This document shows, one piece after another, positions 7,623 to 43,056 of a stretch of 64,000 bases of DNA. The stretch lies in NCBI RefSeq assembly GCF_000026545.1, contig NC_011601.1; one strand, given 5' to 3'. The notes beneath the pieces were generated by a model that did not search any database, was not told where the DNA came from, and was given only the letters and a program-made list of their open reading frames with translations. This DNA comes from Escherichia coli O127:H6 str. E2348/69 (lineage in GTDB: Bacteria > Pseudomonadota > Gammaproteobacteria > Enterobacterales > Enterobacteriaceae). A program made the translations under genes and the position numbers. Positions within the stretch are counted from its first letter, which is position 1. Every line of letters begins with the position of its first letter.

Positions 7623-9770
7623 TTACGCCAGTGCCGCTTCGCGCAGGCGAGTTTTCAACTTGTTGTACTCGTCAATCACGTACTGCTCGGCGGCGCGCTG
7701 ATCGGCGATCGGCTCGACGCGCACGGCGCAGTATTTGTATTCCGGCGTTTTCGTAATCGGGCTTAAGTTTTCGGTAACCAGCTCGTTACAGGCACCAATC
7801 CACCACTGGTAGGTCATGTAAATCGCCCCTTTGTTCGGACGATCGCTGACCTGCGCACGGGTGATAATTTTGCCTTTACGCGAGTGCACCCAAACCAATG
7901 CCTCATCTTCAATACCCAGACGTTTGGCGTCTTCGGTATTGATTTGTGCGTAGCCAGGTTCATCAGCCAGCGCCGCCAGTGCCGCACAGTTACCGGTCAT
8001 CGAACGGCAAGAGTAGTGACCAACTTCACGCACCGTTGACAGTACCATCGGGTACTCGTCGGTGAGTTTGTCGATTGGCGCGACCCAGTCGCAGGTGAAG
8101 AACTGCGCCAGACCGTTCGGGGTATCAAACTTCTCTTTAAACAGATAAGAAGTCCCCTGATCGGCATCTGAAGTATCCCGGCAAGGCCACTGAATGAAGC
8201 CCAGTTCGCCCATTTTTTCGTAAGTCGCACCGTAGAAATCCGGGCACAGATGACGCAACTCATCCCAGATCTCCTGGGTGTTGTTGTAGTGCATCGGATA
8301 ACCCATACGGGTGGCGATTTCACTGATAATCTGCCAGTCCGTTTTCAGATCCCATTTCGGTTCAACCGCTTTGAAGAAACGCTGGAAGCCACGGTCAGCC
8401 GCAGTAAACACGCCTTCATGCTCGCCCCACGACGTTGACGGTAAAATAACATCCGCCGCCGACGCGGTTTTGGTCATAAAGATGTCCTGAACGATGACCA
8501 GTTCCAGATCTTCAAAGGCTTTACGTACTGCCGACAGCTCCGCGTCAGTTTGCAGCGGATCTTCGCCCATAATGTACGCGGCACGCACTTCGCCATGCGC
8601 TGCGCGGTGCGGCAGCTCGCTGATGCGATAGCCGGTATGAGCAGGCAGGCTTTCCACGCCCCAGGCTTTGGCGAATTTCTCGCGGTTAGCCGGATCTTTC
8701 ACGTACTGGTATCCCGGATACGTATCCGGCAGCGCGCCCATATCGCAGGCACCCTGCACGTTGTTCTGACCACGAACCGGGTTTACACCCGCATGCGGCT
8801 TACCGAGGTTACCAGTCAGCATCGCGAGGCTGGTCAGAGAACGCACGGTTTCCACGCCCTGGTAGAACTGGGTTACACCCATGCCCCACAGGATGGCGGC
8901 GCTTTTCGCCTGGGCATACATCCGCGCCGCCTGACGAATCTCACTGGCGCTGACGCCGGTGATATCTTCAACCGACTCCGGCGTGTAGCCTTCAACGATT
9001 TTACGATACTCTTCAAAGCCTTCTGTACGGGAAGCGACGAAAGCTTTGTCGTACAGGTTTTCTTCAATAATGACATGGCCCATCGCATTCAACAGCGCGA
9101 TGTTCGAGCCGTTTTTCAGTGCAATGTGCATGTCAGCAATGCGCGCGGTTTCAATTTTGCGCGGATCGCAGACGATAATTTTCGCCCCGTTACGTTTAGC
9201 GTTAATTACGTGATTCGCCACGATTGGGTGGGAATCCGCCGGGTTGTACCCGAAAACGAACACTAAATCGGTATTATCAATTTCGTTAATAGCATTGCTC
9301 ATTGCGCCATTACCGACCGATTGGTGCAGACCTGCAACCGATGGGCCGTGTCAGACACGAGCGCAGCAGTCAACGTTATTGGTACCAATAACGGCGCGCG
9401 CAAATTTTTGCATTACATAGTTGGTTTCGTTACCCGTACCACGCGAGGAGCCGGTCGTCTGGATGGCATCCGGACCGTACTTCTCTTTGATGGCGCTCAG
9501 GCGCTCGGCAACGTAATTCAGTGCCTCATCCCAGGAAACAGGTTCGAGTTTGCCGCCACGCTGGCGACGGATCATGGGGGTTTTCAGGCGCGGGGTCAGG
9601 ATCTGGGTATCGTTAATGAAATCCCAGCCATAATAACCCTTCAGACACAGGGTACCCTGGTTGGTTTTCCCCTGCGCTGCCTCCGCCCGGACGATTTTGC
9701 CGTTATCGACGACCAGGTTGATTTTGCAACCTGATGCGCAATAGGGGCAAACCGTGACGACTTTTTTCAT
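7623..9770 (-). CDS. fdhF: Formate dehydrogenase H, selenocysteine-containing molybdoenzyme
   Basis: Track ORFs 9351..9770 and 7623..9302 are in the same frame across a single TGA; 716 codons total; N-terminal Cys cluster CPYCASGCK. Confidence 0.95.
9305..9353 (-). other. In-frame UGA selenocysteine codon (9351..9353) with downstream SECIS region
   Basis: TGA flanked by ...DCCARV and HGPSVAGLHQSVGNG...; bacterial SECIS elements lie immediately 3' of the UGA. Confidence 0.85.
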
Positions 9771-9899: not shown

Positions 9900-9955
9900 A
9901 CAGGCTGTCGTCAGTTTTGACGTGACGAAACGAAATACCGCGTGACAGCCATCAC
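9900..9955 (-). promoter_or_regulatory. Putative enhancer (FhlA upstream activating sequence) for fdhF
   Basis: Inverted-repeat-rich segment (tgtcgtca / tgacgtgacg / cgtgacagcc) about 80-130 bp upstream of the sigma-54 element; assignment by position only. Confidence 0.4.
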
Positions 9956-9967
9956 GCGGCAGACATT

Positions 9968-11434
9968 TTATTTTTTCTCGACGACGGGAGCCGCCTGATA
10001 CCCGCCGCCCAGCGATTTCATCAACTGAATGCTTTGGATCACCCGGCGGCTGTCCAGCATCAGTAATGACATCTCTTCGGCAAGTACTGGCAACCGGGCT
10101 TCAGTGGCCTGTAAGCGGCTGGTTAAGCCGCGTTGATAGGCGGCCTCGGCAGCGCGCTGGGTGAAGCGCGTTGCTTCCACGCGTTCAGCCTGCATCTCTC
10201 GCTCGTCGTTGAGCGTTTGCAGACGCGTGCCGTTGACGGCAACGTCGCGCACCGCATTCAGCACTGACTGGTTGTAACGTTCAATCATCATGTTGCTGGC
10301 GGCGCGAATGCCTTCGAGATTGGCATTCAACCGTCCACCGTCAAACAGCGGCAATTTCAGACCCGGGATAAAGTTGAACTGGCGACTGGTTTTTTTGAAT
10401 AAGGTATCCAGGTGGATAGAATCCAGGCCGAAAAACGCTTTGATATCAAAGCTCGGGTAGAACAACGCCCGCGCGGAATCCACCTGATCTAATGACGCCT
10501 GAACATACCAGCGCATCGCTTGCAGATCCGGGCGTCTGGCGAGCAACTCATAAGAGAGTGTCGCCGGAATACCGGTCTGGACTCGTGGTAATGCCACCGG
10601 TTTGATCTCCGGCATATCGCTGGCTCCCGCGCCAATCAATGCGCGCAGAGATTCCCGCGTTTCAGTGATTTGCCCTTTGACGGCAGCAATTTGTTTATCG
10701 ACCGCCAGAATCTGTGCCCGCGCGCCGTGGAAAGGCACTTGCGCTTCCAGACCGTGCGCCACTTTACTCTGGTGCGCTTTCACCGCGTAATCAATCACAT
10801 CGCGAGTTTGTTCTAACAGATCGAGCATCTGATAGCTGGCCTGCATACTGTAATAAAGCTGCGCTACGCCCGTGGTCAGCGATAGCTCTACTGCTGCGGT
10901 TTCTGCCAGCGCGGCATTATGCGCGCCAATGGCGGCAGCAACCGCTGAGCGATGCACACCCCACAAATCGAGATCCAGTCCGGCAAACAAACCGACTGTG
11001 GCTTCCGTATAGTACGGCCCGTCCATCCCCAGTGCGGGCGCATCCATCGCATAAGGGCTTAAAAAGCCGTTCGCCGAGACACGTTGGCGGTTGAGCATCC
11101 CTAACGCTGCGACCTGTAATTGTGAACCGGCATCTAACAAATCGGCCTGCGACTGCGCTTTTTCTTCCCGCAGTTTCGCTTCGGCGAGGGTGTGTGAACC
11201 ACTTAGCGTCTGTTGGACCAGTGCATCCAACTGCGGGTCATTGAGTTGTTTCCACCACTGCGCCTGCGGCCAACCGGAGCTGGCAAGATGAATATCATCG
11301 GCCAGTTTGATTTGTTCCGGTTTGAGCTGTTGATGAGGCGCAGAATCCTTACGTACCAGGGCACAGCCGGAAATCAGCGTCGTGCTGCCGAGAATGCTGC
11401 ACAACAGCAGGCGTGAAAGTTGACGATTGATCAT
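9968..11434 (-). CDS. mdtP: Outer-membrane efflux channel (TolC/OprM family) of putative efflux pump
   Basis: 488 aa with lipoprotein-type signal (LISGCA); downstream of mdtO. Confidence 0.88.
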   Translation of the reverse strand: MINRQLSRLLLCSILGSTTLISGCALVRKDSAPHQQLKPEQIKLADDIHLASSGWPQAQWWKQLNDPQLDALVQQTLSGSHTLAEAKLREEKAQSQADLLDAGSQLQVAALGMLNRQRVSANGFLSPYAMDAPALGMDGPYYTEATVGLFAGLDLDLWGVHRSAVAAAIGAHNAALAETAAVELSLTTGVAQLYYSMQASYQMLDLLEQTRDVIDYAVKAHQSKVAHGLEAQVPFHGARAQILAVDKQIAAVKGQITETRESLRALIGAGASDMPEIKPVALPRVQTGIPATLSYELLARRPDLQAMRWYVQASLDQVDSARALFYPSFDIKAFFGLDSIHLDTLFKKTSRQFNFIPGLKLPLFDGGRLNANLEGIRAASNMMIERYNQSVLNAVRDVAVNGTRLQTLNDEREMQAERVEATRFTQRAAEAAYQRGLTSRLQATEARLPVLAEEMSLLMLDSRRVIQSIQLMKSLGGGYQAAPVVEKK

Positions 11435-13482
11435 TGCGTGGCTCCTTGTACCTGTTCCGTGGCGGGCGTTAATGCCGGGGCTGTCCAGTCTGGCAAGCGG
11501 GCGAAAAGCTGGCAGACGTGTTGCTCCTGTTTTAATAAGGTCGGCAGGATGGCCTGCGAGGCGGGTGTTTCTTCAAGCGTTATTTGAGGAGAACGGCTGA
11601 GTGCAGTTGCCAGACCGGCGGCGTATTTCTCCAGTGCGTCGGCAAACTGACCTGCTCTGTCCGGCTGTAGTGCGTTATCCAGAGCCTGCGCCGAGTTCCA
11701 GGTTGCATCCCAAGCGTGAAGAATATCGCGGCCCTGACGAATAACCGTTTGCGAACGTTCAATCAGTAAAGCGCGTTCTTCGCTGTCCAGTTGACGCTCC
11801 AGCGCCACGCGTTGGCACATCTCTTCACAGGCATTAAACGCCGCATGCAGACCTATGCGAATTTGCAGATAAGTGCGCAGAGCCGTGACTTCCTGCTGGC
11901 GTGGGATCCGCATTACTTTACTCAACATACCCAGCGCGCCAGCCAGTTTTTGCGGCAGCGTGCGCGCTTCACTTTCAGGCCAGACAAAGGTGTAAATCAC
12001 CGCGGACACCACGGTACCAATGATGATACCCAGGGCGCGATCGCGAATTTCCACCAGGTCGTACACCGGGCCAAAAACGTTTTCGAGCGTGGCGAGCGCG
12101 AAGGTGACCACCATCTGTGTGCCGATATAAGAAGAGCGTTCAGAGCTGGTGGCAATCCATGCGCCCAACAGGAAAATCGGTGCCAGCACAAACAGCAATT
12201 CGACAATATTGTCCAGCCAGGGCATGACCAGCAGCGTGAATAACAGCGCCAGAATTGCACCGCAGAAGGCACCGCCAAAACGCAGCGCCATTTTCTGATA
12301 CGACGAACCAACATTCGGGTTAGCGACGATCACGCAGGTCAGCATACAGGTGTGAATGCCTTCCCAGTCCACGCCGCTGTAGAAGGTGTAACAGATCAAA
12401 CAGGCGAGCAGCGTTTTTACCGCGTAGCGCATATAGTCTGGATTGGTAAAAGCGTCGGCGACCATTGATGGCGGTTTGGCGGCGGGCGTTGGCGGCGTAT
12501 TCGGGTCCATCTGACCCAGTTGCAATAACGTCTGGCAGATATTCTCCAGGTTACATTCCCGTGCCGCCATCGCTTCACTTTCACTGATCCGCCAGTCGCT
12601 TTGCCAGCACTGACCTTCGGTAATGGAATGCTGCAGCTTGTTGATTTCTGAAGCTAATTTTTGTCGGAATTCAATAATTGCCTGAGAATCAGCAAAAGAG
12701 GTGGGATCGTAGCGATTCAGCGTCGAGTAAATGTAGGTTACCGTTGTCACGCAGCTTTGCCACCATGCGCTCTGGGTTCGCCAGTTGGCATCGTCCGCGA
12801 GGCAAAAGACATTGAGTTTTTGCAGCGCCAGCGCCTCTCTTTCAATCCGCGTTTCGGGTAGCGGTGCGAGGCTGTCCGTCAGGTGGCTAATGGCATCATC
12901 AAGCCGATCATTAAGCGCCTGATGCATCTGCGTAATGGCACGACTGGGAAACCACAGCACGCCGATTAACGTCATCAGCAAGGTTGGATAGAGGCCAACA
13001 ACGATACACCAGAGCGTTAAGCGCACGACCACTTCCGGATAGTCGAGCATGGCGGGGAAGGTTTGCCCGTAAATAGCGACAATGGCGACGGCGAAAAAGA
13101 CCAGCCCCAACCGATGGGTGCGCATCAAAAACATACCGCCCATCAGGATCGGTCCGGCGATGATCAATCGGATCAACGGTTCGCCGTATGACCATTTGTA
13201 GATCAAAAACAGGCTGCCGATCTCCAGCATCGTGGCGACCACAAACAAGATCGCCACAAATTTGGTGTAAAACGCGTTGGACTGAATACCGTAAAACAGC
13301 ACTGCCAGCGATAACGCCACAAAAGGGATCTCAAAAGTCATCGAGATCAGAATCACCAGCAGGCAGCCTACCCAGAGTTGCATAGTCTGCGGCACGCGGC
13401 CTGGTCGCCGCTCGCTTAACTCTTCATGAAAGAACGCCAGCAGCCTGACCACCGGTAATGGCAGGGAGTTGAGCGCGCTCAT
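11431..13482 (-). CDS. mdtO: Inner-membrane efflux component (AaeB/fusaric-acid-resistance family)
   Basis: 683 aa polytopic membrane protein; 4-nt overlap with mdtP. Confidence 0.88.
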   Translation of the reverse strand: MSALNSLPLPVVRLLAFFHEELSERRPGRVPQTMQLWVGCLLVILISMTFEIPFVALSLAVLFYGIQSNAFYTKFVAILFVVATMLEIGSLFLIYKWSYGEPLIRLIIAGPILMGGMFLMRTHRLGLVFFAVAIVAIYGQTFPAMLDYPEVVVRLTLWCIVVGLYPTLLMTLIGVLWFPSRAITQMHQALNDRLDDAISHLTDSLAPLPETRIEREALALQKLNVFCLADDANWRTQSAWWQSCVTTVTYIYSTLNRYDPTSFADSQAIIEFRQKLASEINKLQHSITEGQCWQSDWRISESEAMAARECNLENICQTLLQLGQMDPNTPPTPAAKPPSMVADAFTNPDYMRYAVKTLLACLICYTFYSGVDWEGIHTCMLTCVIVANPNVGSSYQKMALRFGGAFCGAILALLFTLLVMPWLDNIVELLFVLAPIFLLGAWIATSSERSSYIGTQMVVTFALATLENVFGPVYDLVEIRDRALGIIIGTVVSAVIYTFVWPESEARTLPQKLAGALGMLSKVMRIPRQQEVTALRTYLQIRIGLHAAFNACEEMCQRVALERQLDSEERALLIERSQTVIRQGRDILHAWDATWNSAQALDNALQPDRAGQFADALEKYAAGLATALSRSPQITLEETPASQAILPTLLKQEQHVCQLFARLPDWTAPALTPATEQVQGATQ

Positions 13483-14513
13483 TATTGCGGCTCAAGATTA
13501 GCGACTGCCGAAGCGCCGATGCGGAACATTTCCGGGTCAGGTTTTTCAACCATGATTTTGACCGGAAAACGCTGGGCAACGCGGACCCAGTTAATAGAAC
13601 GAGACACTTTCGGCAGGCCGCCCAGCACCAGGCCGCCGTCATCCGGTAGCACGCCGTAGCCAATCGAATCCACTTTACCCTCGAAGGTTTTGCCGCTGTT
13701 GCTCATCAGGCGAATCGTTGCGGGTGTACCTGAGCGAATATTTTTCAGTTCGGTTTCGCGGAAGTTGGCAATCACGTACCAGTGACGAGTGTCGATTAGG
13801 GTGAAAATAGGGCGCATCGCAGATGCAAACTGCCCGACGGAGGTTTTGAGGGAAATGACCCGGCCATCAAACGGCGCGCGAACGGTCGCCATTTCCAGAT
13901 GCAGTTTGGTCAGGGCAATATCTGCTTCCACTGCCGCACGCTGGGCAACTAATGCATCCACGCCGCTAACGGCGCTGGCGGCTGACTGCGCTTGTAACAA
14001 TACGGCATTAAGGTCCGCTTCTGCCGCACGCTGTGCGGTTCTTGCACGGTCAACCTCTTCCGCAGAAACAAAACCTTCTCGCAGTAGCGGTTCGGTACGG
14101 CGTAACGTATCGCTGGCTTGTTTAGCGGCGGCACGGGCTTTTTCTACCGTGGCATTAACCGAGTCGGCACCAAACTGTTGTGCGTCAACGCTACGCTGGG
14201 TGAGCATAATTTGCTTATCCAGCGCTGCGAGGGAGGCTTCAGCTTTCGCCAGATTGGCTTCGTACGGGCGCGGATCAATGCGGAACAGCAAATCGCCCTG
14301 TTTCACCGCCTGGTTGTCGGTGACCGCCAGTTCTACAATGCGACCGCTGACTTCCGGCACCACATCAATGGTATCTGCTGACGCGTAAGCGTCATTAGTT
14401 GATGGCGCACTGTCTACGCGCCAGATAACGAAAACAAGGGCAACCAGCGCCAACGCAACCACTAACAGAGCAGGGAATTTACTGCGAGGAGCTTTTTTCG
14501 GCGTACTTTCCAT
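13482..14513 (-). CDS. mdtN: Membrane fusion (HlyD/EmrA-like) efflux component
   Basis: 343 aa with single N-terminal TM segment and coiled-coil region. Confidence 0.88.
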   Translation of the reverse strand: MESTPKKAPRSKFPALLVVALALVALVFVIWRVDSAPSTNDAYASADTIDVVPEVSGRIVELAVTDNQAVKQGDLLFRIDPRPYEANLAKAEASLAALDKQIMLTQRSVDAQQFGADSVNATVEKARAAAKQASDTLRRTEPLLREGFVSAEEVDRARTAQRAAEADLNAVLLQAQSAASAVSGVDALVAQRAAVEADIALTKLHLEMATVRAPFDGRVISLKTSVGQFASAMRPIFTLIDTRHWYVIANFRETELKNIRSGTPATIRLMSNSGKTFEGKVDSIGYGVLPDDGGLVLGGLPKVSRSINWVRVAQRFPVKIMVEKPDPEMFRIGASAVANLEPQ

Positions 14514-14531
14514 GAGCGCGTCTCAAATAGA

Positions 14532-14807
14532 TTAGAAAAATACCAGCCAGAACAGCATGGCGTAGAGAGCAAAAAGGGCGGTATAAATAATTCCGACAAA
14601 TGCCAGATTGATATTTGTCCGCTGAATAATTCGCCTCGTGATGAGCGTCAAAATAAGGCTGGCAATGGCGCAGAAAAACCAGCCGGGATAATAAGCGCCG
14701 ATCACCGGGATTGCCGGAGATAATGAGCATCCCGAAACCATGAAGACGGGAATTATCCAGGCTGTTTTTTTGAGTTGCATCGCCATGCGAGAGAGAACTG
14801 TTGGCAT
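14532..14807 (-). CDS. ytcA: Small lipoprotein upstream of mdtNOP
   Basis: Internal ATG MPTVLSRMAMQLKKTAWIIPVFMVSGC with lipobox; track ORF extends 16 codons upstream. Confidence 0.7.
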   Translation of the reverse strand: MPTVLSRMAMQLKKTAWIIPVFMVSGCSLSPAIPVIGAYYPGWFFCAIASLILTLITRRIIQRTNINLAFVGIIYTALFALYAMLFWLVFF

Positions 14808-14983
14808 ATTAAATACATCCTGTCTGCTGCGAACAATATCTGTAGTGAATATCAATATCCATTGAAGGCGTCAGTATGGCTATTTTCTCGATGAATAAAA
14901 ATAGCTTTATTCAGCCACCACATTCATAACTTATATATTTTATGTATTAATTTGCTGTATATATTTTTAAAATAAATGTTTTT

Positions 14984-15001
14984 GGGGGCTTCAGCGCCCC
15001 C
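14984..15001. terminator. GC hairpin (gggggc-ttcagc-gccccc) flanked by T/A runs, possible terminator after yjcS
   Basis: Read directly; U-tract geometry is imperfect. Confidence 0.35.
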
Positions 15002-15015
15002 AAAAGCGAGTGACA

Positions 15016-33526: not shown

Positions 33527-33614
33527 TAGGCCGGATAAGGTGCTTGCACCGCATCCGGCATCAACGTCTGCACATTGTCGGATGCGACGCCGGGGCGTCT
33601 TATCCGACCTACGA
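33527..33614. repeat. Pair of REP units between phnD and phnE
   Basis: gtaggccggataagg...gcatccggca and gtcggatgcgacgcc...ttatccgacctac. Confidence 0.7.
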
Positions 33615-36085: not shown

Positions 36086-36165
36086 AGCCTGATAAGACGC
36101 GGTCAGCGTCGCATCAGGCAGTCGCCACCGTTGCCGGATGCGGCGCGAGCGCCTTATCCGGCCTA
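36086..36165. repeat. Pair of REP units between yjdN and yjdM
   Basis: gcctgataagacgc...gcatcaggc and gccggatgcggcgc...ccttatccggcctac. Confidence 0.7.
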
Positions 36166-41828: not shown

Positions 41829-41838
41829 CAATTGAACT

Positions 41839-41855
41839 CTTAAGGTTCACTTAAT
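41839..41855 (+). promoter_or_regulatory. PmrA (BasR) box upstream of pmrR
   Basis: CTTAAG-N5-CTTAAT direct repeat, ~45 bp upstream of pmrR ATG. Confidence 0.65.
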
Positions 41856-41899
41856 CTCTGACGCGCATACTCTCCTCCAGGTTAACGGAGGAGAGTGCA

Positions 41900-41989
41900 A
41901 TGAAAAACCGTGTTTATGAAAGTTTAACTACCGTGTTCAGCGTGCTGGTGGTCAGCAGCTTTCTTTATATCTGGTTTGCCACGTACTGA
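41900..41989 (+). CDS. pmrR: Small membrane peptide PmrR (29 aa)
   Basis: ATG preceded by GGAGGAG; MKNRVYESLTTVFSVLVVSSFLYIWFATY is a single TM helix; not in the ORF track (<60 aa). Confidence 0.75.
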   Translation: MKNRVYESLTTVFSVLVVSSFLYIWFATY

Positions 41990-43056
41990 TCTTTTTTCAG
42001 CCGTATACAGGCCCGCGTGCCGGAAGTCTCTTGCCGGTTTTGCAGGAAAAAATGCCCGTGATGCAACTGTGTAATGCGGCTGACAATACTTAACCCCAGA
42101 CCAATCCCGCCATAACGGCTGTCCATTCGTACAAACGCTTTACTCAACTCCCCGCATTTACTCTCATCAATACCCGGTCCTTCATCTTCAACGGCCATGA
42201 CCGCTCCGCCATCTTCTTGCAGCTTAATCATAATGTTGCTGCCTTGTGGGCTATAACGATGGGCGTTTTCTACCAGGTTTCGCAATAACATCCGCAGCAG
42301 GGTTGCATCACCCTGAACGGTGATGTCGGCGGCGCTCTCTGGCAATAGCAGGGTTTGCTGGCGCTGGTCGAGCATGGTACTAAGTTCGTCATACGAGGGG
42401 AGAATGACATCTTCCAGCAGTTTTACATGTTGATAATTACCGGAAGAAAATGACTGTCCGGCACGCGCCAGTTGCAGCAGCTGGGAGACGCTCTCCATCA
42501 TCTGATCAAGTCGTGCCACTAACGGTGCTACATCAATGTGATGCGTTTTCGCCAGCAGTTCCAGATGCAAACGCACCCCCGCCAGTGGCGTTCGCAGTTC
42601 GTGCGCGACGTCAGCGGTAAACAACCTTTCGTTATCCAGCGTGCTGGTCAGGCGACTGACCAGATCGTTTAACGCCGAAACCACCGCATCGATTTCGAGG
42701 GTGGCGCTATGAATGGCAATGGGCGTTAAGTTGTCGGCGGTGCGCGCTTCCAGCTCTTTTTGCAGCTCCGCCAGCGGTCGGGTGATGCGGCGTACCGCCT
42801 GATAGCAGATAAATAGCGTCAGGCTAACCATAAAGACGCCGGGGACAATCAGGCTGGCGACCGCCTCGCGGATCTCACGCATGATGTGGCGATCGTTGTT
42901 GCGATTGTCGCGTAACGCCTGCTCAAACAGCTGAATCTGCTCGGTACTTTCATGCCATAGCCAGAAGACGCTGATCAGCTCGAATACCAGCAGAATAGCC
43001 CCAATGGTCAATATCAGCCGTTGACGTAGTGATATTGGTTGGCGTAAAAAGCGCAT
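41965..43056 (-). CDS. basS: Sensor histidine kinase BasS/PmrB
   Basis: HAMP, HisKA (H-box AHELRTP) and ATPase domains; start taken 3 codons inside the track ORF. Confidence 0.9.
   Translation of the reverse strand: MRFLRQPISLRQRLILTIGAILLVFELISVFWLWHESTEQIQLFEQALRDNRNNDRHIMREIREAVASLIVPGVFMVSLTLFICYQAVRRITRPLAELQKELEARTADNLTPIAIHSATLEIDAVVSALNDLVSRLTSTLDNERLFTADVAHELRTPLAGVRLHLELLAKTHHIDVAPLVARLDQMMESVSQLLQLARAGQSFSSGNYQHVKLLEDVILPSYDELSTMLDQRQQTLLLPESAADITVQGDATLLRMLLRNLVENAHRYSPQGSNIMIKLQEDGGAVMAVEDEGPGIDESKCGELSKAFVRMDSRYGGIGLGLSIVSRITQLHHGHFFLQNRQETSGTRACIRLKKDQYVANQI

Follow-up and report, generated by a model that had tools for sequence, protein, structure and literature searches.

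ytcA at the head of the mdtNOP efflux operon of Escherichia coli: a predicted lipoprotein hairpin related to the DUF1656 proteins AaeX and YdhI

AcrZ is a very small inner-membrane protein of the AcrAB-TolC efflux pump, which modulates rather than drives transport. It is a single helix and no lipoprotein, it is encoded away from acrAB, and its partner is a transporter of the resistance-nodulation-division (RND) type. Two operons of Escherichia coli that encode FUSC-type pumps, aaeXAB and ydhIJK, offer a closer comparison, each one being headed by a small protein of the DUF1656 family. These leading proteins, AaeX and YdhI, have two helices and are encoded first in an operon with an adaptor and a FUSC-type transporter. 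In several bacteria, transposon data have shown that mutants in DUF1656 genes have fitness phenotypes in common with mutants in the neighbouring membrane fusion protein (MFP) and FUSC genes (Price et al., bioRxiv 10.1101/072470). The present analysis deals with another small leading gene, ytcA, which lies in front of mdtN, mdtO and mdtP in a stretch of 64,000 nucleotides from E. coli O127:H6 str. E2348/69 (contig NC_011601.1), referred to here as the window and used for all coordinates. ytcA is probably the first gene of a ytcA-mdtN-mdtO-mdtP operon, and its product is likely a lipidated inner-membrane hairpin acting as an accessory subunit of this FUSC-type tripartite pump.

The 1.8 kb around ytcA are 100% identical to NZ_CP059840.2 (E. 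coli E2348/69), and a search of 5426 complete E. coli genomes found the ytcA region in 5402 of them, as a single copy in each. The RefSeq gene order on the minus strand is yjcS, ytcA, mdtN, mdtO, mdtP, fdhF. The layout is identical in K-12, where the product is named ‘putative lipoprotein YtcA’ (b4622). The E2348/69 and K-12 proteins share 96% identity and differ by four substitutions only (G42S, I62V, T65A and V89A, with the E2348/69 residue first). All three parts of a tripartite efflux pump, adaptor, inner-membrane transporter and outer-membrane channel, are encoded on one strand in the window, together with ytcA:

14532–14807, minus strand: ytcA coding sequence, 276 nt, 91 codons plus stop, a prolipoprotein; RefSeq ‘YtcA family lipoprotein’, Pfam PF17090
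13482–14513, minus strand: mdtN, periplasmic adaptor (membrane fusion protein); NF007785, 529 bits for a cut-off of 376
11431–13482, minus strand: mdtO, FUSC-family inner-membrane transporter; NF008510, 1363 bits for a cut-off of 821, and Pfam FUSC
9968–11434, minus strand: mdtP, outer-membrane channel lipoprotein; NF007390, 1022 bits for a cut-off of 597
14980–15005, minus strand: terminator-like hairpin ending yjcS, with a 10-bp stem including 6 G-C pairs and a T-rich tail
9936–9961, minus strand: terminator-like hairpin at the likely operon end, 7 nt after the mdtP stop, with an 11-bp stem including 6 G-C pairs and a T-rich tail

These genes are tightly packed. The ytcA stop is separated from the mdtN start by an 18-nt gap, the mdtN stop and the mdtO start overlap by 1 nt (TAATG), and mdtO and mdtP overlap by 4 nt. 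The hairpin behind yjcS implies that ytcA starts a separate transcription unit. Other genera have a hairpin at the same place with a different sequence, so that the stem is maintained through matching changes in its two arms (GGGGGC/GCCCCC in E. coli, TTCCAGAGAT/ATCTCTGGAA in Citrobacter, CCGGGGG/CCCCCGG in E. fergusonii). That ytcA heads a ytcA-mdtNOP operon is thus well supported by the short gap and overlaps, the bracketing terminator-like hairpins and the conserved gene order described below. An earlier note on this DNA had proposed that a 91-aa lipoprotein gene precedes the adaptor, inner-membrane and outer-membrane components and heads the mdtNOP operon. The first point is confirmed by the RefSeq annotation, the NCBIfam scores and the gene order, and the second one agrees with the packing, the flanking hairpins and the conserved order. 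The role of the accessory lipoprotein was rightly described there as poorly defined, since the searchable literature leaves the roles of YtcA, AaeX and YdhI undefined.

The match to the Pfam Ytca profile (PF17090) covers positions 1–62 of 62 and reaches 61.2 bits for the 91-aa protein, for a cut-off of 28.8. A profile search of 1.84 billion representatives gave a family of 563 clusters at 50% identity (E<=0.001). Two of its top matches, P0241 (1953 aa) and P0242 (1321 aa), contain 10–13 matched stretches each and were rejected, their summed scores being spurious because they are translations of tandemly repeated DNA. The ratio of non-synonymous to synonymous substitution rates (dN/dS) of the mature part, compared with ten enterobacterial orthologues, is 0.13–0.25. 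By profile match and selection, ytcA is a real gene, far from a chance open reading frame (ORF). Base composition gave no sign of foreign origin: the operon has 51–60% G+C, A+T-richness being confined to the intergenic region.

Gene linkage was scanned in 80 ytcA loci, with one genome per species, from Enterobacteriaceae, Burkholderiaceae, Pseudomonas, Cupriavidus and others. An MdtN-like gene starts at most 400 nt downstream on the same strand in 77 of the 80 loci, with a median gap of about 29 nt. An MdtO-like FUSC gene comes next in 72 of the 74 loci with enough downstream sequence, and the MdtO-like gene is followed by an MdtP-like one in 66/73. The same order of Ytca, adaptor, FUSC and outer-membrane channel (OEP) was seen in separate look-ups of Salmonella, Citrobacter and K. 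aerogenes. This near-obligate linkage across proteobacteria makes a subunit role of YtcA a sensible hypothesis.

Some genomes carry two ytcA operons, one with the orthologue and one with a 39%-identical paralogue. Klebsiella grimontii 06D021 thus has two ytcA-adaptor-FUSC-channel operons at different sites (L014 and L036), the two YtcA homologues being 65% and 39% identical to the E. coli protein. Two ytcA loci (L016 and L022) are also found in Citrobacter sp. wls619. At L016, ytcA and the upstream blocks described below are kept, with an 11-nt deletion, together with mdtN fragments only and no mdtO or mdtP. At four Pseudomonas loci (L047, L049, L058 and L076), a gene matching only a 160–180-residue part of MdtO comes after the ytcA homologue and the MdtN-like adaptor, with no MdtP-like gene, which suggests a different or split transporter partner.

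The relationship to the leading proteins of the two other FUSC-type operons could be detected by several methods. BLASTP aligned YtcA with AaeX at 38% identity over 64 residues (E=2e-6), and the sequence homology with AaeX and YdhI spans both helices and the N-terminal tail. Profile comparison of YtcA with DUF1656 by hhalign gave E-values of 4e-5 to 9e-5, with a probability of 70% at E=4e-5. The DUF1656 model is matched at E<=0.01 by 40 of 82 YtcA-family members, the best one reaching 3e-8. YtcA itself matches the NCBIfam AaeX equivalog at E=0.003 (17.8 bits for a cut-off of 82). By these alignments and profile matches, YtcA is homologous to the DUF1656 proteins and occupies an equal genetic position. 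Two differences are found, however: AaeX and YdhI have neither signal peptide nor N-terminal Cys, and aaeXAB and ydhIJK of E. coli, unlike ytcA-mdtNOP, contain no outer-membrane channel gene. The pairwise alignment sets Ser28 of YtcA against Ser2 of AaeX, which places Cys27 of YtcA at the position of Met1 of AaeX. We thus read YtcA as a DUF1656-type hairpin which may have gained, or kept, a lipoprotein signal peptide.

The N-terminal part of YtcA has the following predicted features:

14730–14807, minus strand: signal peptide, residues 1–26, with the n-region MPTVLSRMAMQLKK carrying 3 positive charges and the h-region TAWIIPVFMV
14727–14738, minus strand: lipobox V24-S25-G26-C27, Cys27 being the predicted lipidation and signal peptidase II cleavage site

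The three positive charges lie within residues 1–14 (R7, K13 and K14) and are followed by a ten-residue uncharged core, residues 15–24. The lipoprotein rule of the PROSITE PS51257 type was applied by hand (an uncharged h-region followed by [LVI][ASTVI][GAS]C, with the Cys at 15–35 and a K or R near the N-terminus). YtcA agrees with it in its V24-S25-G26-C27, in a Cys within 15–35 and in the N-terminal K/R. G26 and C27 are invariant in the close-family alignment (A1). Over 136 diverse family representatives, the Cys is present in 132, and the residues around it resemble a lipobox in 129; position -3 is L in 93 and position -1 is G in 116. The Cys stands exactly 10 residues ahead of the GAYFP motif in 117/132 representatives, and E. 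coli YtcA has the same spacing (C27, then G37-A-Y-Y-P-G-W43). Conservation starts sharply at the Cys, the region ahead of it being poorly conserved, and the dN/dS of the signal peptide (0.1–0.6) is relaxed compared with the mature part.

The N-terminal stretch could also stay uncleaved, which would make YtcA an unlipidated three-helix membrane protein with an incidental Cys. The lipidation of YtcA is itself a prediction from sequence, the h-region has a hydropathy of 2.07, and the AlphaFold2 (AF2) model draws a helix at residues 5–25. However, an h-region of 10 residues is too short for a membrane span, and the predicted local distance difference test score (pLDDT) is only 53–58 there. A chance Cys would also hardly keep its spacing to GAYFP in 117/132 representatives, nor its neighbours G at -1 (116) and L at -3 (93), and the sharp onset of conservation falls on this residue, which is exactly where AaeX begins. 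An uncleaved YtcA looks thus very improbable, and a cleaved, lipidated N-terminus is retained here as the preferred reading.

Once cleaved, mature YtcA would be a protein of 65 aa with two strongly hydrophobic segments, its sole charges, R58, R59 and R63, all lying in the connecting loop:

14685–14714, minus strand: conserved periplasmic segment, residues 32–41 (AIPVIGAYYP), a predicted short beta-hairpin with AF2 strands at 32–35 and 38–41
14616–14684, minus strand: predicted transmembrane helix 1, residues 42–64, including R58/R59/R63 of the cytoplasmic loop; AF2 pLDDT 84–91, hydropathy 2.07 over 42–57
14538–14597, minus strand: predicted transmembrane helix 2, residues 71–90, with the C-terminus periplasmic; AF2 helix, hydropathy 2.06

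The region of residues 32–41 is the best-conserved part of the family (PS-I-x-V-x-GAYFP-x-W), with G37, P41 and W43 invariant, and the stretch of highest conservation reads C-x-x-x-P-S-I-x-V-x-G-A-Y-F-P-x-W-x-F-C. The AF2 model, built on 82 family members, comprises a low-confidence signal-peptide helix, the beta-hairpin 32–41 and the helices 42–64 and 71–90 with pLDDT values of 82–91. Mature YtcA is thus predicted to be a two-helix hairpin. No solved structure was found by sequence for YtcA or MdtO, and no fold match was found for the YtcA model. Following the positive-inside rule, the loop should be cytoplasmic and both ends periplasmic, which agrees with a lipid on Cys27 at the periplasmic face.

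The predicted architecture can be compared with that of CyoA, subunit II of cytochrome bo3 oxidase, in which a lipid-modified N-terminal Cys is also followed by two transmembrane helices in the E. coli inner membrane. The comparison is architectural only, since CyoA is far larger, belongs to a respiratory enzyme and has no sequence relationship to YtcA. A molecular-dynamics survey named CyoA and YiaM as lipoproteins with transmembrane helices and listed YtcA only as a consistent membrane binder (PMC7139219). Sorting of YtcA by the Lol pathway to the outer membrane, where it would work with the MdtP channel, could be considered on two grounds: the residue at +2 is Ser and not Asp, Asp being found there in just 4 of 132 relatives, and the same survey handled YtcA as an ordinary membrane-binding lipoprotein. 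Such a destination is nevertheless extremely unlikely. Two long hydrophobic helices with an Arg-rich loop make extraction by LolCDE unlikely, CyoA provides a precedent for a lipoprotein kept in the inner membrane by transmembrane helices (PMC7139219), and AaeX and YdhI, its relatives without a lipid, can only be inner-membrane proteins. Inner-membrane retention of YtcA would thus rest on its helices and not on the +2 rule.

The in-frame start options of E. coli ytcA are TTG 14855, ATG 14807, ATG 14786 and ATG 14780, which justifies the statement of the earlier note that the start is ambiguous in the ORF list. The span given in that note (13482–14855) is that of mdtN plus the longest mechanical ytcA ORF, 107 aa from TTG 14855. 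The comparison of genomes then favours the annotated ATG 14807. For this purpose, the upstream region and the first codons were aligned from 19 enterobacterial genomes (Escherichia, Salmonella, Citrobacter, Kluyvera, Klebsiella grimontii, Superficieibacter and one further enterobacterium). ATG 14807 is kept in 19/19 genomes, always 26 codons ahead of the Cys (codon 27), and it is the sole conserved start. It is preceded by a Shine-Dalgarno element:

14818–14821, minus strand: Shine-Dalgarno AGGA, 10 nt upstream of ATG 14807

The motif (A/G)GGAT, 10–11 nt before the ATG, is likewise conserved in all 19 genomes. Indels of 1 nt occur among the genomes just upstream of ATG 14807, and none from the ATG to the Cys. 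Met8 and Met10 are not conserved: E. albertii and C. youngae have ATA at codon 10, E. fergusonii has ACG there, and no alternative start is found before codon 15 in E. fergusonii and K. sichuanensis. The conserved ATG and Shine-Dalgarno element, the lack of conservation of Met8 and Met10 and the restriction of indels to the upstream side make the 91-codon start at ATG 14807 the best supported one.

Two other starts were considered and rejected. The 107-aa ORF from TTG 14855, which also matches PF17090 (E=2e-16, 60.5 bits), crosses two of the conserved non-coding blocks described below (D and E) and loses its frame through 1-nt indels from one genus to another; by this comparison, it is an artefact of the ORF rule. 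Salmonella, Citrobacter, Kluyvera and E. albertii have an in-frame ATG four codons upstream of the annotated one (MYFI-M..., within the Shine-Dalgarno element). In E. coli and E. fergusonii, however, this ATG does not share the reading frame of ytcA, and Kluyvera genomosp. 3 has lost it by mutation.

Translation from ATG 14780 (Met10) or ATG 14786 (Met8) would give a precursor of 82 or 84 aa (MQLKKTAW...), the first nine annotated codons then being a 5′ leader. MQLKK-TAWIIPVFMVSGC alone is indeed a textbook lipoprotein signal peptide, and a Met10-type start was picked by several gene callers (82-aa entries such as P0032, P0058 and P0073). Most genomes have GTG9 or ATG10, and codons 2–9 are near-neutral, with dN/dS values of 0.35–1.3 that come near 1 against several genera. 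Against this, no purine-rich Shine-Dalgarno element precedes Met8 or Met10, codon 9 is GCG in E. coli, codon 10 is not a start in E. albertii, C. youngae (both ATA) or E. fergusonii (ACG), and E. fergusonii and K. sichuanensis offer no other start before codon 15. ATG 14807 with its AGGA, by comparison, stands in 19/19 genomes with no indel before Cys27. The shorter precursor is therefore improbable. The mature protein would be the same whichever start is used, either precursor being cut at one place.

Taken together, translation from ATG 14807 would give a 91-aa prolipoprotein, of which Cys27 would be lipidated by the Sec and lipoprotein pathway and residues 1–26 removed by signal peptidase II. 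The mature 65 aa would stay in the inner membrane as a helical hairpin, exposing the lipidated N-terminus, the short conserved beta-hairpin and the C-terminus to the periplasm and the R58/R59/R63 loop to the cytoplasm. The cleavable lipoprotein signal peptide would serve to place the N-terminal tail in the periplasm. Judging from the strict gene linkage, YtcA would adjoin MdtO at its membrane domain, MdtN at its membrane anchor, or both, and it would stabilise or tune the pump rather than carry substrate itself.

Several points weigh against this picture. The AF2 model is moderate overall, with a mean pLDDT of 74 and a predicted template modelling score (pTM) of 0.50. YtcA scores 21–22 bits (21.1–22.0) against the Pfam DUF1656 model (PF07869), below its cut-off of 26.5, so that it is not filed as a member of this family. 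Because codons 2–9 are near-neutral, constraint at the protein level cannot separate a start at M1 from one at M10. No report of YtcA expression, lipidation or binding to MdtN or MdtO was found in the searchable literature, nor was any functional study of YtcA found there under YtcA, b4622, mdtNOP (sdsRQP/yjcRQP), AaeX, YdhI or DUF1656. Finally, an 8855-bp deletion from alsR through ytcA and mdtN confers mdtOP-dependent resistance to pyrrolomycin and armeniaspirol on a tolC mutant (PMC8672772). MdtO and MdtP can thus still function in the absence of YtcA, at least under overexpression from a foreign promoter.

The same deletion strain, in which mdtOP works without ytcA (PMC8672772), could be taken to mean that ytcA is mainly an upstream reading frame controlling mdtN expression, by coupling or as a leader, with a protein playing no role in the pump. 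ytcA indeed ends just 18 nt upstream of mdtN, the Shine-Dalgarno element of which is weak (GAGA). Yet the mature peptide is under purifying selection (dN/dS 0.13–0.25), its motifs are kept from Enterobacteriaceae to Burkholderia and Pseudomonas at 30–40% identity, and a leader ORF would not retain a lipobox and a two-helix fold over 563 clusters, all of which makes a purely regulatory ytcA highly improbable. An accessory subunit is thus still preferred, and a modulating or stabilising role, as that of AcrZ for AcrB, would fit best with both the fitness data and the deletion strain. The likeness to AcrZ is one of function and by analogy only, the two proteins not being homologous.

A separate observation concerns the mdtN/mdtO junction. 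In an armeniaspirol-resistant tolC mutant, residues 2–9 of MdtO are substituted (S2K, A3T, L4I, N5G, S6T, L7E, L9C; PMC8672772). As these codons lie at the overlap of the mdtN stop and the mdtO start (about 13482), the change looks like a small junction rearrangement rather than independent point mutations.

The region between yjcS and ytcA is itself conserved, as seen in the 19-genome alignment and in a block scan of 16 loci:

14811–14934, minus strand: conserved non-coding region, five blocks
14932–14917, minus strand: block A, AAGTTATGAATGTGGT, given as AAGTTATGAATGCGGT at -125
14908–14898, minus strand: block B, AAAGCTATTTT
14886–14872, minus strand: block C, AAAATAGCCATACTG, at -79, in which CATACT is a possible -10 element
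14852–14828, minus strand: block D, ATATTCAC-N4-GATATTGTTCGCA, at -33
14823–14811, minus strand: block E, ACAGGATGTATTT, which contains the Shine-Dalgarno element

The blocks lie at a near-fixed distance from the ATG (within 1–2 nt, apart from the 11-nt deletion at L016) in at least seven enterobacterial genera, namely Escherichia, Salmonella, Citrobacter, Kluyvera, Klebsiella (K. grimontii), Superficieibacter and Pluralibacter. At a tolerance of at most 2–3 mismatches, the scan detected blocks A and D in 16/16 loci, block E in 14 and block C in 11. Some of the blocks are fully invariant in a six-genus alignment, and all five are more conserved than the signal-peptide codons. Paralogous and distant ytcA operons covered by the block scan lack them, and their motifs do not occur elsewhere in the window beyond chance.

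A sigma-70 consensus scan called no promoter on the ytcA strand. By eye, the best candidate is CATACT (14878–14873) with a T-rich -35, other hexamer pairs giving no fit, so that a -10 element in block C is plausible. With CATACT as the -10, block A would lie near -60, and the leader would include blocks D and E. Conserved RNA structure was not detected in the ytcA leader, where RNAalifold gave 4 invariant pairs without covariation, and Rfam had no match of any weight there. Block A holds a small upstream ORF (ATGAATGTGGTGGCTGAATAA in E. coli), which was discarded: in our own reading of the alignment it is not conserved as an ORF, with ATA in Salmonella and different lengths in Kluyvera and Citrobacter. 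The five blocks are probably a promoter and the binding sites of a regulator.

Elsewhere in the window, the fdhF gene (7623–9770), next to mdtP, is split in the ORF list at an in-frame TGA selenocysteine codon, and the Rfam SECIS_2 element lies inside it (9304–9358, minus strand, 87 bits). The in-frame selenocysteine TGA and the SECIS element are a known feature of formate dehydrogenase H. Rfam also detected, above the gathering score, the small RNA STnc630 at 41831–41996 (plus strand, 182 bits) and two copies of naRNA4/CssrE, the REP-derived nucleoid-associated RNA, at 33529–33609 (plus strand) and 36086–36163 (minus strand).

As a discovery, ytcA carries little weight. It is an ordinary and already annotated E. 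coli gene, not a new one, and the current RefSeq and K-12 annotation already includes it with its family name and lipoprotein prediction as well as its position before mdtNOP. The present analysis adds a supported start codon, the relationship to AaeX and YdhI with its topology, a family-wide measure of linkage and the conserved upstream region. A bolder extension is possible, although doubtful at this stage. Every FUSC-type (aromatic-acid-exporter) envelope pump would have YtcA or one of its DUF1656 relatives as an obligatory fourth subunit, whose conserved periplasmic N-terminal tail, held by a lipid anchor in the case of YtcA, would dock the adaptor onto the transporter; separately, the upstream blocks would be the sites of a dedicated regulator, which would explain why mdtNOP is silent in the laboratory. 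The conserved upstream region provides a concrete handle for seeking the regulator of mdtNOP. The link with AaeX and YdhI fixes the likely topology of the whole group, with the N-terminus out, and would unite ytcA-mdtNOP with aaeXAB and ydhIJK, the two other E. coli operons for FUSC-type pumps, under a single four-part design.

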